Assembly (NCBI GenBank): GCA_049515895.1
Contig: JBEKTQ010000008.1
Location: 1 to 64,000, forward strand
DNA length: 64,000 nt
Source: Candidatus Bathyarchaeia archaeon
Lineage (GTDB): Archaea; Thermoproteota; Bathyarchaeia; Bathyarchaeales; Bathycorpusculaceae
Direction of reading: 5' to 3'
Part shown: positions 51,984-54,694 of the stretch, piece after piece
Layout of the letters: every line of letters starts with the position of its first letter
Numbering within the stretch: position 1 is the first letter of the stretch
The notes under the pieces: model-generated
The model's database searches: none
Told to the model about the DNA's origin: nothing
The model's input: only the letters and a program-made list of their open reading frames with translations
Position numbers and translations under genes: made by a program

Positions 51984-53189
51984 TTGCAAAATCGACCAGC
52001 CATTGTTGCTGTTGGCAGAACCAAGTTCGGGGAGCATTATGGCAAAGAACCCGAGAAACTTATTGAGGAAGCTTGGCTTGCCGCTTCAAACGAATGCAGT
52101 TTAGAACGGAAGGACCTTGAAGCCTGCTATATGTCAGATTGTTTTCTCCCGATTACGAACAAGTTGGGTTTGGAAGAGGGCTTTCTTTCAGAGCTCACCG
52201 AGTTGCATGTGCCCATGGAGGTAACCCGTTCTTTCAGTGCTGCACTGTTAACCGCCTGCCACGCGATTCAGGCAGGAGTTTACAACACTGTCCTCGTCGG
52301 GGGCATCGAAAAAATGACGGATCGCTGGGACAAAATACGGGACGACCTTATGCTGCTGGAAGATCCGTGGAGCTACTTTGCAGGCGGCACTCCGGAAGCC
52401 AATCATGAACTGCTGTTAAGAGCCTACATAAAGAAGCATCACATAACAGGCGAAAACCTGAACAAGCTCAACATCGCCTTAGCACAAGTTTCTGTAAAAA
52501 ACCATGCGAACGCAACCAAAAACAAGTACGCACAGTATCAAAGACCAATCACGGTTGACCAAGTCTTGAACGCGAGGAAAACAGAGCATAAACCTTTAGG
52601 CATGTATGATTTTGCCCCGGTTTCCGATGGTGCCTCGGCGTTGATTCTGACAAGTGAAAGTACCGCCAAGAAGCGATGTGATAAACCAGTTTACGTTTTA
52701 GCGTGCACTTCAGCCACTGACTACTTGAACTACTCGGCGAGGGAGGATTTGTCTCGTTTTGTGGCGGGCGAAATCGCGATGAAGAATGCTGTTCAAGTAG
52801 CTAAGACTGCCTTGTCTGATATACAGGTTATCGAAATAAATGACCAGTCTACGATGATGGAGCTTGTTTCGCTTGAAGATTTAGGCTTCATTGAGTCAGG
52901 GAGCGCGTGGAAAAACATCTATGAAAGCTACGTGAACAATAGGAATTCTTATGAGGTAAACGGTAAGCAGCTTTTCGTTAATACTGATGGGGGGTTAAAA
53001 GCCGATGGGAACCCGTTTGGGGCCACTGGCGGGGCTCAGGTTTTTGAAGTCTATCGCCAGCTAAAAGGTCAGGCTGGAGCCCGGCAGGTTAGCTTCGTTG
53101 ATGGTTCACCGAAGACTGGTTGCGTTTCGGAGTTTGAAGGCTTCGGAACGAAGGCTTACGCGACTATCTTAGGAGAGAAGAAAGATTGA
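51984..53189 (+). CDS. Thiolase-fold protein lacking the catalytic residues
   Basis: VGRTKFG, GGIEKM, VKNHANA, SDGASALIL, VNTDGGLKADGNPFGATG; no ACAS Cys, HD replaced by ND, GHP by GNP. Confidence 0.88.
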   Translation: MQNRPAIVAVGRTKFGEHYGKEPEKLIEEAWLAASNECSLERKDLEACYMSDCFLPITNKLGLEEGFLSELTELHVPMEVTRSFSAALLTACHAIQAGVYNTVLVGGIEKMTDRWDKIRDDLMLLEDPWSYFAGGTPEANHELLLRAYIKKHHITGENLNKLNIALAQVSVKNHANATKNKYAQYQRPITVDQVLNARKTEHKPLGMYDFAPVSDGASALILTSESTAKKRCDKPVYVLACTSATDYLNYSAREDLSRFVAGEIAMKNAVQVAKTALSDIQVIEINDQSTMMELVSLEDLGFIESGSAWKNIYESYVNNRNSYEVNGKQLFVNTDGGLKADGNPFGATGGAQVFEVYRQLKGQAGARQVSFVDGSPKTGCVSEFEGFGTKAYATILGEKKD

Positions 53190-54694
53190 GTAGTGAACCG
53201 ATAGAGCGACGGGTTTCATATTTAGGTGACAGGTTACGCGCTAGCCAATGCCAGTGCTGCGGCAAAGAATATTTTGAAGTTAGAGATTACTGCAGCAACT
53301 GCGGCAGAAAAAGCTATGGAAAAATGGATAGCATAGACCTGTTTTATGACAGGGGAAAACTTGAATTATGCACATTCATCAATGAACCCACCAACAAGTT
53401 CATGAAGCTTTCAAGCTACGTTTACGGGATAATTTCTTTTCACAACGGCAAAATTCGTGTACCAGGAAGATTAACTGACCAGCTAATAGCGGACGGCAAG
53501 GATGTTGACTTGGCAAGCCTTGAAGGGAGAGAAGTAGTTCCCCGTTTCCGCAGGCGTTACTCGGTGGGAAAAAGCGAAGTCGTTCCAACGATTTCGTTGG
53601 CTTTCACTTTAGCCGATGAGTATTACCCACACCAAGAATATCGCATAACCGCACCCAACAAAGAGTATGAGTTACCGGGAGTCGTTGGCTACGGCGTTTA
53701 CTCTTCCAGGTTCCGAATAAAAGAAGCAGGATTAGAACGCGCTGTCCCATTCGTTGATGAAGACTCGGTAACGGCGGCTGTGGAGGCAGGAAAACTCGCC
53801 TTGATTCATTCAGGCATTGACAGCAGGCTAGTTGGCAAAGTTTATGTCGGTTCAGAATCCAACCCGTATTCAGTTAAGCCTATCGCGTCTAAGGTAGCTC
53901 AGGTGCTTAAGCTCGGCGAAGAAGACGGCGATGTTCAAGGCGTCGACGCAGTTGACACCGAGTTCGCGTGTAAAGCAGCTACAAGCATGTTTAAGGATGC
54001 TTGCGCCCTCGTCAGTTACCCACGTTCAGGCGTAAAATATGCAATAGTTATTGGCGCCGATAATGCCCAAGCAGCGCCAAGAGGCTGCCCAGGAGGCGAA
54101 TTGGACACGTTTGTCGGTTATGGTGGTGCCGCGTTCATTTTCGGAAAAAGCGACGTAATAGCTCAGGTGGAAGGGTGGTATTCCTGCACTTCTGATACAC
54201 CTGATTTCTGGCGTCGGGATGGCGAACCTTTCCCGATGCATGGCGGAAGATTCACAGGCGACCCTGCCTACTTCAAGCATGTCCGCAAGGCAACGTGTAA
54301 ACTTATGGAGCGGCATAACCTCAAAGCAAACGATATCGGTTATTTCGTTGCTCATCAGCCTAACCCTCAGTTCCCAGCTAGAATAGCTAAGGAGCTTGGG
54401 TTTAGGGATGAACAGTATTTGCCTGGGCTTATGATTAACAAATTCGGCAACACCTACTCCGGCTGTGTGCCCCTGAGTTTAGCGGCCGTCCTTGACATAG
54501 CGAAACCTGAAGAGCTTATTTTAGTCGGTAGCTACGGTTCAGGAGCTGGAAGCGACGCATACCTGCTTAGAACCACAAGCCAGCTTGTCGACAAGCGAAA
54601 ACAGCAGAAGGTAAACGTCAAATTTCAATCTGAAAACCCATTCATTGAATATGTAGATTACACGACCTATCGGCGTCTTAAACTTGGGATGTAA
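53186..54694 (+). CDS. DUF35 (Zn-ribbon/OB) scaffold fused to HMG-CoA synthase
   Basis: N-terminal CQCCG..YF..RDYCSNCG plus OB-like region; C-terminal DEDSVT, GSESNPY, EFACKA, HQPN, GNTYSG, SYGSGAGSD. Confidence 0.9.
   Translation: MSSEPIERRVSYLGDRLRASQCQCCGKEYFEVRDYCSNCGRKSYGKMDSIDLFYDRGKLELCTFINEPTNKFMKLSSYVYGIISFHNGKIRVPGRLTDQLIADGKDVDLASLEGREVVPRFRRRYSVGKSEVVPTISLAFTLADEYYPHQEYRITAPNKEYELPGVVGYGVYSSRFRIKEAGLERAVPFVDEDSVTAAVEAGKLALIHSGIDSRLVGKVYVGSESNPYSVKPIASKVAQVLKLGEEDGDVQGVDAVDTEFACKAATSMFKDACALVSYPRSGVKYAIVIGADNAQAAPRGCPGGELDTFVGYGGAAFIFGKSDVIAQVEGWYSCTSDTPDFWRRDGEPFPMHGGRFTGDPAYFKHVRKATCKLMERHNLKANDIGYFVAHQPNPQFPARIAKELGFRDEQYLPGLMINKFGNTYSGCVPLSLAAVLDIAKPEELILVGSYGSGAGSDAYLLRTTSQLVDKRKQQKVNVKFQSENPFIEYVDYTTYRRLKLGM

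Follow-up and report, generated by a model that had tools for sequence, protein, structure and literature searches.

In a Candidatus Bathyarchaeia archaeon, a thiolase-like protein encoded directly upstream of the 3-hydroxy-3-methylglutaryl coenzyme A (HMG-CoA) synthase (HMGS) has lost all of its catalytic residues: the acyl-accepting Cys, the acid/base Cys and both oxyanion His. The gene lies in the 64,000-nt stretch analysed here (contig JBEKTQ010000008.1 of GenBank assembly GCA_049515895.1, positions 1 to 64,000; hereafter the window). The gene that follows it joins a DUF35 domain to an HMGS domain with an intact active site. Judged from sequence comparison, the thiolase-like protein is a conserved pseudo-enzyme under purifying selection and not a decaying gene. 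An intact thiolase, with its own free DUF35 gene, is encoded on another contig of the same genome. On balance we favor the view that the dead thiolase serves, without catalysis, as a structural or CoA-site subunit still required by the HMGS, and that acetoacetyl-CoA comes from the free thiolase/DUF35 pair.

The thiolase-like open reading frame (ORF) is full length, and its stop overlaps the start of the fusion gene by 4 nt (53186-53189), just as the sequence-only reading of the window had it. Both genes start with TTG in the window; ATG is found at the same codon in most orthologues, which supports both starts. In Pfam searches, the 401-aa product matched Thiolase_C_1 (E value, 2e-24; 86.4 bits for a cut-off of 28) and Thiolase_N (1.2e-9; 38.4 bits for a cut-off of 26.4), and it stayed below every curated NCBIfam cut-off (NF004720, 273.9 bits versus 420; NF053570, 224.8 bits versus 600). 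Its best solved relative was 6esq_A, the thiolase of the Methanothermococcus thermolithotrophicus thiolase/HMGS complex (E value, 1.1e-45). The same chain was the best structural neighbor found by Foldseek (template modeling [TM] score, 0.82) for an AlphaFold2 monomer model with a mean predicted local distance difference test (pLDDT) score of 77.9 and a predicted TM score of 0.85. As modeled, the protein retains the N- and C-terminal thiolase domains and the thiolase fold.

The motifs of the ORF were compared with those of 6esq_A and of the intact thiolase of the same genome (coordinates in Table 1). The intact nucleophile loop E-x-A-C-A-S has become E-V-T-R-S-F-S, four residues shorter, with a Thr in place of the Cys (residues 79 to 87 form EVTRSFSAA). 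Of 29 orthologues (described below), 27 have T at position 81, one has V, and one has A, and R82 and S83 are invariant; a Cys occupied this position in all 25 free intact and all 4 operonic intact thiolases of the same alignments. The E(V/I)HDCF motif has become EINDQS: position 286, that of the His, was N in 13 orthologues, Y in 15, and C in 1, and D287, Q288, S289, and T290 were invariant. GNPFGATG stands in place of GHPVGATG, with GNP in 29 of 29 orthologues. These three losses had been claimed in the sequence-only reading, and the alignment with the Methanothermococcus structure confirmed each of them. A fourth signature is lost as well: the C-terminal loop HN(I/V)GG(T/S)G reads SEFEGFGT (residues 382 to 389), and E383, E385, G386, F387, G388, T389, and K390 are invariant among the orthologues. 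Within the changed motifs, only the two strictly catalytic positions, 81 and 286, vary. Proteins of this dead type carry the public labels "acetyl-CoA C-acetyltransferase" or "thiolase family protein"; the former is untenable for a protein without catalytic residues and overstates what it can do.

Could another residue have taken over, so that the protein is still an acetoacetyl-CoA thiolase with an unconventional nucleophile or base? Such an enzyme would fit the few genomes in which another thiolase seems to be missing. However, all four signature motifs are changed, and the positions of the nucleophile (T, V, or A) and of the HDCF His (N, Y, or C) vary among orthologues. Two Cys residues had been named as possible substitutes, and neither qualified. 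C53, in MSDCF, was ruled out because it is not conserved. C92, in LTACH, is the only well-conserved Cys; it sits 11 residues further along the helix than the nucleophile position, is replaced by Ser in orthologue L023, and also occurs in the four aligned intact operonic thiolases that keep the true nucleophile, so it is not a replacement. According to PMC12960953, single His mutations kill activity in relatives: the archaeal complex with H284A in its HDxF motif no longer forms HMG-CoA from acetyl-CoA, and PfACAT with H294Y has almost no thiolysis activity left. We therefore regard retained thiolase activity as very improbable.

Next, the spread of this gene arrangement was examined in 40 relatives together with the window's genome. 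A dead-type orthologue with 57 to 87% identity was present in 36 of the 41 genomes; two of the five genomes without it are 58% and 71% complete. Twenty-nine complete loci, from the window's own genus and six other families of the order, were read; G021, with a TGA inside its gene, was left out, and six further matches gave no locus. In all 29 loci, the thiolase-like frame was open and full length, the fusion gene followed directly, overlapping or a few nucleotides apart, and all four signatures were altered in the same way, which is far beyond chance. The ratio of nonsynonymous to synonymous substitution rates (dN/dS) was estimated by the Nei-Gojobori method for within-genus pairs with a dS of <2. 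The median was 0.065 for the dead thiolase (61 of 231 pairs), 0.052 for the fusion (43 pairs), and 0.057 for the intact thiolase (34 of 78 pairs); with dS near 1.5 these figures are rough, though all are far below 1. The substitutions and the fusion thus recur under purifying selection, and the fear that relatives would keep the catalytic residues, with the window holding a lineage-specific decaying gene, was not borne out.

The reading frame is interrupted in a few genomes. In G021 (65% complete), the dead-thiolase gene (G021:C7:28024-29204, L034) contains an in-frame TGA, and a single stop lies within the aligned range in four matches from a class-wide search (G070, G103, G263, and G302), where it may merely reflect read-through of the natural stop at the gene overlap. 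Interruptions of this kind are what a functionless, decaying gene specific to one lineage would show. However, the frame is open in all 29 loci, its dN/dS is as low as that of the intact thiolase, and the gene is conserved across many families of the order; we find decay hardly conceivable. The class-wide search covered 401 evenly drawn genomes at least 80% complete, with a match cut-off of E ≤ 1e-80. Matches were found in 214 of the 401, mostly in the window's own order, where nearly all genomes of the large families were matched (f1, 143/147; f7, 25/25; f6, 12/13), and almost none lay outside the order. The cut-off is blurred at its margin: of five sequences read among the six weakest matches (all but G404; E values of 1e-134 to 1e-81), four were intact thiolases and one was of the dead type (G075, from another order). 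In all, motifs were read for 30 sequences of the dead type and 12 of the operonic intact kind.

The second gene of the pair encodes a 502-aa fusion protein. Residues 184 to 497 matched NF003274, the archaeal HMG-CoA synthase equivalog, with 354.8 bits for a cut-off of 244; TIGR00748 gave 317.6 bits, just under its cut-off of 353.35. The Glu, Cys, His, and Asn named as the HMGS catalytic tetrad (PMC12960953) are all present. The synthase of the fusion looks fully competent. The N-terminal domain (first 160 residues) matched 6esq_E, the DUF35 chain of the solved complex, as a single sequence (E value, 4.4e-7). With a profile built from 17 orthologues, 6esq_E was the sole match among solved structures (E value, 3.5e-9; residues 17 to 89, which takes in the start of the OB part). 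Among the 17 N-terminal domains, zf-ChsH2 was matched in 14 (the window's copy, at 22.3 bits, falls just below the cut-off of 23.2) and OB_ChsH2_C (PF01796) in only 2; the latter gave no match on the fusion in the genome search. The N-terminal domain is 31 to 37% identical to free DUF35 genes. Thus, the claim that DUF35 is joined to an HMGS with intact Glu, Cys, and His held (NF003274, 6esq_I, and 6esq_E), and the Asn, N422, is kept too. Nothing was found in support of the suggestion that the complex acts on a different acyl-CoA: the tetrad is intact, and the score is above the equivalog cut-off. The region that links DUF35 and synthase (53621-53674 and 53540-53640) is as conserved as the catalytic domains, with the motifs P-R-F-R-R-R, P-T-I-S-L-A-F, and Y-Y-P-x-Q; for a passive linker (fusion residues 146 to 163), such conservation is unexpected.

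The sequence-only reading had supposed, as one of two options, that acetoacetyl-CoA would come from another source, and an intact thiolase was found in the genome. Exactly two thiolases were matched by PF22691 and by PF00108 in the genome (3.18 Mb, 100% complete), which has one HMGS, the fusion being its only FabH/HMGS-like match. The second thiolase, on contig 21, is a 392-aa protein with intact E-S-A-C-A-S-S-G, E-I-H-D-C-F, and G-H-P-V-G motifs that scored 490.8 bits with NF004720, above the cut-off of 420, and a free 135-aa DUF35 gene follows it directly. This pair is the simplest candidate for the other source. No match was found in the genome for PF02737 (3-hydroxyacyl-CoA dehydrogenase) or PF01039 (acyl-CoA carboxyltransferase). 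A malonyl-CoA-dependent or β-oxidation route to acetoacetyl-CoA was rejected on that ground. With no other FabH/HMGS-like match either, the free thiolase is the one evident acetoacetyl-CoA source, and no use for the free thiolase is evident other than in the mevalonate pathway.

The same pairing is widespread. A second thiolase match was present in 33 of the 36 dead-type genomes, the exceptions being G009 (56% complete), G021 (65%), and G033 (97%). In the 25 loci fetched from relatives, the second thiolase was intact and followed by DUF35 every time, and HMGS adjoined it only in G038. The latter, a genome of the same order, has a classical HMGS-thiolase-DUF35 operon (G038:C69:886-3318, L036/L039) with a 355-aa HMGS frame and an intact thiolase; it has neither the dead type nor the fusion, and the derived arrangement is found in G028, from a sister genus in that family. 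Two other genomes of the order, G026 and G034 (98% complete each), have the intact thiolase/DUF35 pair and no dead type. When the fusion was used as the query, no archaeal-type HMGS was found in G026, and only a weak match of 31% was found in G034.

Is the dead thiolase still part of a particle with the fusion protein? In structure predictions of the pair, the interaction prediction score from aligned errors (ipSAE) was 0.79, 0.75, and 0.79, versus 0.00 for the best of three controls; of 157 solved complexes, 116 reach the mark used, as do 2 of 215 mismatched pairs. The pLDDT of the partner was at least 91, that of the nonpartner chain was 88 to 91, and at least 88% of contacts were common to the runs. 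Confident contacts (<8 Å) joined fusion residues 6 to 138 with thiolase residues 116 to 150, 201 to 204, and 250 to 256, and no others were found. The operonic thiolase is therefore predicted to bind the DUF35 domain of the fusion. In the monomer model, segments 111 to 136, 203 to 214, and 339 to 347 had a pLDDT of <50; they overlap the most conserved stretches (109 to 123, 127 to 141, 205 to 219, and 337 to 351) and would suit elements that become ordered only within the particle. A structural or CoA-binding pseudo-enzyme had been proposed from the window alone. Of this proposal, the conserved pseudo-enzyme (29 of 29 loci) and a subunit predicted to bind DUF35 (0.79 versus 0.00) stood, and the pocket may shape or close the shared CoA chamber or bind a CoA ester as TbSLP does.

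These results can be joined as follows. The DUF35 scaffold is fused to the N terminus of an active HMGS, and the thiolase subunit can no longer perform thiolase chemistry. It would dock on the DUF35 domain, hold the particle together, and complete the CoA chamber shared by both subunits. In the archaeal complex, two HMGS dimers and two thiolase dimers are held by four DUF35 proteins (PMC11522927), and HMGS and thiolase share the CoA site where they meet; produced singly, the archaeal HMGS has no activity and the thiolase is insoluble, according to papers citing Vogeli 2018 (PMC12960953 and PMC11522927). On these grounds, the synthase of the fusion may still need a partner with a thiolase fold for assembly and for the binding of CoA esters, and the dead thiolase would have been kept for this reason. 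Acetoacetyl-CoA would be made in trans by the contig-21 thiolase with its own free DUF35 and would reach the synthase by diffusion. We infer the physical binding of the dead thiolase to the fusion from the model, the dependence of the synthase on the dead subunit by analogy with published work on another archaeon, and also the supply in trans.

Several observations weigh against this explanation. Supply in trans would forfeit the channeling that is thought to pull the endergonic thiolase step. Moreover, among 271 genomes of the order that are at least 90% complete, 17 had a single low-scoring PF22691 match, and 12 of these (91 to 100% complete) carry the dead type with no other thiolase seen (G325, G280, G225, G402, G131, G390, G257, G204, G110, G361, G033, and G059). 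Both sampled genomes of each of the genera g20 and g22 belong to this set. Searches of G033, G110, G204, and G325 with PF00108 and PF08541 returned only the dead thiolase and the fusion. The absences may reflect incomplete assemblies, as their frequency, about 6% of genomes, is that expected by chance at 91 to 97% completeness; if they are real, these lineages have no known source of acetoacetyl-CoA, and this is the main fact against supply by the free thiolase. A low PF22691 score was rejected as a marker of the dead type because the single weak match of G383 is an intact operonic thiolase. In the two genomes of g22, the CobD neighbor was followed by other genes; this synteny is not kept even in a thiolase-bearing genus (G157) and so has no weight as a sign that the intact thiolase was truly lost. 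As for the model, a like complex has been solved (6esq/6et9), so the ipSAE result may reflect likeness or the predictor's memory rather than binding, and the 1:1 model has no confident contact (<8 Å) between the HMGS domain and the thiolase. Invariant residues were not enriched at the predicted interface of the thiolase (12/29 versus 115/372; P = 0.30) or of the N-terminal domain (15/35 versus 50/125; P = 0.85). The former active-site loops (74 to 88, 337 to 351, and 383 to 397) are among the most conserved stretches of the dead thiolase. A pure scaffold has no obvious need of conserved loops; therefore, the pocket may still act.

Channeling would be kept if the intact free thiolase, with or without its DUF35, joined the assembly, for example by forming a heterodimer with the dead thiolase in the fashion of a ketosynthase and its chain-length factor. 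Each pair would then have one active site to hand acetoacetyl-CoA to the synthase through the shared CoA site. Thiolase-fold proteins are obligate dimers, which speaks for such a mixed particle. So do the nearly constant co-occurrence of the dead type with an intact thiolase/DUF35 pair (33 of 36 relatives) and the lack of any other use found for the free pair in the window's genome, with no 3-hydroxyacyl-CoA dehydrogenase match. Channeling is also the stated reason for the canonical complex (PMC11522927). However, the free thiolases are of two kinds, either 65 to 87% or about 48% (G027 and G335) identical to the copy of the window's genome, which argues against a tight, coevolved hetero-oligomer. 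Each HMGS chain carries its own DUF35, so a free DUF35 has no obvious docking site, and the two loci are unlinked (contigs C8 and C21). We consider a mixed particle fairly unlikely.

The conserved loops could instead mark a pocket with a new function, a remodeled site that binds or acts on a ligand as a non-catalytic acyl-CoA receptor, a regulatory site, or the seat of new chemistry. Its invariant residues would be R82, S83, D287, Q288, S289, T290, N343, E383, and E385. The rank of the former active-site loops among the most conserved segments, with only the strictly catalytic positions 81 and 286 varying, fits this possibility. So does the precedent of TbSLP, which has no nucleophile and was solved with malonyl-CoA (5ab7) and acetoacetyl-CoA (5ab6), and that of Ltp2 and Sal, thiolase-fold proteins without the nucleophile that are aldolases (PMC12329534). 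However, the aldolase mechanism was rejected as a conserved function: the essential Tyr in the Y-D-x-F motif of Ltp2 and Sal is Asn286 in the window and a Tyr in only 15 of 29 orthologues. Besides carboxylates and amides, no invariant candidate for a nucleophile or base is present, the neighborhood has no gene for another pathway, and the conserved loops, being part of the thiolase core as well, may do no more than shape the shared CoA chamber. A new function of the pocket is, in our view, unlikely. In a version of this idea that we regard as quite unlikely, the remodeled pocket would be a non-catalytic acyl-CoA receptor or gate that captures free acetoacetyl-CoA, or senses a CoA ester, and passes it on to the synthase via the shared chamber.

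The order of events was approached through operons in which the fusion follows an active thiolase. A fusion-type N-terminal domain was found in 224 of the 401 class genomes, and in 12 genomes, 11 from other orders and G383 from the window's own, the DUF35::HMGS fusion was preceded by an intact thiolase; the fusion thus also occurs without the dead thiolase. The full set of three motifs was seen in G191, G046, G093, G383, G128, G177, G174, G194, and G230, and part of them in G183, G089, and G233, whose genes are cut or split. These operonic intact thiolases share about 40% identity with the dead thiolases and about as much with the free ones. In a tree of 63 thiolases (FastTree, LG+gamma, with two distant paralogues as the root), dead and intact operonic thiolases together formed one clade (support, 1.0) separate from the free ones. 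Within it, the 29 dead thiolases and G075 grouped (0.77) on a long stem, and four intact operonic thiolases grouped together (0.999). All operonic thiolases, and none of the free ones, share T-N-K-(L/I)-G-L, K-I-x-D-D-L-M, and an insert after E-S-Y. Since the intact operonic thiolases cluster with the dead ones, the fusion with an active thiolase is probably older, and catalysis was probably lost later. Six of the 12 intact-operonic genomes have no other thiolase (G191, G046, G383, G128, G177, and G183), and the other six have extra pairs. The near-constant presence of an intact free pair with the dead type fits loss of the active site under redundancy: a fusion with an active thiolase would have come first, a second thiolase/DUF35 pair would have made the operonic site redundant, and the site would have been lost and the subunit retained.

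Thiolase-like genes without the nucleophile also occur elsewhere in the class. The genus g94, of another order (L089 of G224, L096 of G230, L097 of G194, and L098 of G233), has a second, independent cluster of HMGS-like, thiolase-like, and DUF35 genes. The HMGS-like gene, cut by the locus end, is 44 to 45% identical to the HMGS domain of the window, and the thiolase-like protein has E-A-G-S-A-S-G, V-H-D-D-F, and G-N-P-L-G, with Ser for the nucleophile Cys, Asp for the acid/base Cys, and Asn for the GHP His. In G194, G230, and G233, an intact operonic thiolase accompanies the fusion, and a free intact pair is present as well; neither was seen in G224, which has one intact thiolase on a short contig. 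Other thiolase-like paralogues without the nucleophilic Cys were seen in L069 (minus strand, offset 2132), L071 (minus strand, offset 3205), L104, and L108 to L110 (G025, G029, G404, and G044), with F-T-V-S-G-D-G, F-V-G-G-G-T-G, and A-T-C-G-S-T-G loops and x-Y-D-P-F or I-H-D-L-F in place of HDCF; they often stand in tandem and adjoin DUF35 genes. In the window, the neighbors of the locus are genes for Nramp, BacA, NAPRTase, a Yip1-like membrane protein, an SSB-like OB protein, and UvrB, which, BacA aside, are unrelated to lipid or CoA-ester metabolism.

Table 1. Coordinates of the thiolase-like gene, the fusion gene, and their domains and motifs in the window
Feature	Position (nt)	Strand	Remarks
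Thiolase-fold pseudo-enzyme gene	51984..53189	+	401 aa, TTG start; Pfam and 6esq_A matches, NCBIfam below cut-off
Former nucleophile loop EVTRSFSAA, residues 79-87	52218..52244	+	Thr81 at the place of the Cys, beside a 4-residue deletion
EINDQS, residues 284-289, for E(V/I)HDCF	52833..52850	+	His to Asn286, acid/base Cys to Gln288
GNPFGATG, residues 342-349, for GHPVGATG	53007..53030	+	His to Asn343
EFEGFGTK for C-terminal thiolase loop HN(I/V)GG(T/S)G	53130..53153	+	From the alignment
DUF35::HMG-CoA synthase fusion gene	53186..54694	+	502 aa, TTG start
DUF35-like domain, about residues 1-145	53186..53620	+	N terminus MSSEPIERRV invariant, Zn ribbon, OB-like part
Zn-ribbon Cys C22, C25, C36, and C39	53249-53302	+	C-x2-C...C-x2-C, rubredoxin-like, invariant in orthologues
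Conserved linker, fusion residues 146-163	53621-53674	+	Between the DUF35 part and the synthase
HMG-CoA synthase domain, about residues 164-502	53675..54691	+	NF003274; 6esq_I, E value 1.5e-75; tetrad
Tetrad Glu E224 in GSESNPY	53855-53857	+	Invariant in 29 orthologues
Tetrad Cys C262 in FACKA	53969-53971	+	Invariant in 29 orthologues
Tetrad His H390 in HQPN	54353-54355	+	Invariant in 29 orthologues
Tetrad Asn N422 in GNTYSG	54449-54451	+	Invariant in 29 orthologues

The thiolase/HMGS/DUF35 complex is the accepted archaeal means of pulling the unfavorable first step of isoprenoid lipid synthesis. In these widespread and abundant uncultured archaea, the thiolase of the putative particle has been switched off and is kept under strong selection, and its chemistry would have moved to a separate thiolase/DUF35 pair. 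Such a system would be a natural experiment on the importance of channeling in vivo, on the structural dependence of the archaeal synthase on a thiolase-fold partner, a dependency that would outlive function, and on the origin of pseudo-enzymes in primary metabolism. It bears on archaeal lipid synthesis, pseudo-enzymes, and metabolic channeling alike, and it is the mirror image of the bacterial route that turned the same complex into Friedel-Crafts acylases. If the pocket were an acyl-CoA receptor, a channeling enzyme would have been converted to a subunit for substrate capture or regulation where archaeal lipid synthesis begins, and lineages apparently without another thiolase would rely on an as yet unknown source of acetoacetyl-CoA.

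Compared with known systems, the arrangement is a variant of the archaeal thiolase/HMGS/DUF35 complex that we did not find described; no account of a catalytically dead thiolase beside an active HMGS, or of this Bathyarchaeia fusion, was found in a literature search that did not cover subscription journals and supplements. As in that complex, the three modules are encoded together in adjacent genes, no residue of the HMGS tetrad is missing, contact between the thiolase and the DUF35 module is predicted, and 6esq_A, 6esq_I, and 6esq_E are the best solved matches of the three modules. In contrast to it, the thiolase module of the window has no catalytic residue, DUF35 sits on the N terminus of HMGS so that two genes stand for three, and a separate active thiolase/DUF35 pair is encoded elsewhere. 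The defining coupling of two reactions in one particle cannot run through this thiolase. Type II polyketide ketosynthases work with a paralogue without the active-site Cys, the chain-length factor, kept as an obligate partner; they belong to another branch of the superfamily, whereas the dead subunit of the window would pair via DUF35 with a different enzyme. Ltp2, Sal, and TbSLP, all among the structural neighbors of the thiolase-like model, likewise have an SCP2-type thiolase fold that lost its nucleophile, and Ltp2 and Sal have a DUF35 partner (PMC12329534). However, Ltp2 and Sal keep Y-D-(H/C)-(F/Y) with the essential Tyr, where the window has N-D-Q-S, and none of the three partners an active HMGS. 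PhlACB, MucABC, and PfACAT/HMGS-DUF35 resemble the window in that three modules are kept and one catalytic module is dead (PMC12960953 and PMC6392133), and a DUF35-HMGS fusion is also described for PfACAT/HMGS-DUF35 and Streptomyces albus (PMC12960953 and PMC11522927). In the bacterial fusions described there, DUF35 is at the C terminus of HMGS, not at the N terminus as in the window. The bacterial derivatives, as described, have left the mevalonate pathway, whereas the HMGS of the window looks competent and is the only one found in its genome. They are a mirror image of the window: there, it is the HMGS-like module that has lost catalysis, and the Cys of the thiolase is retained (PMC12960953).

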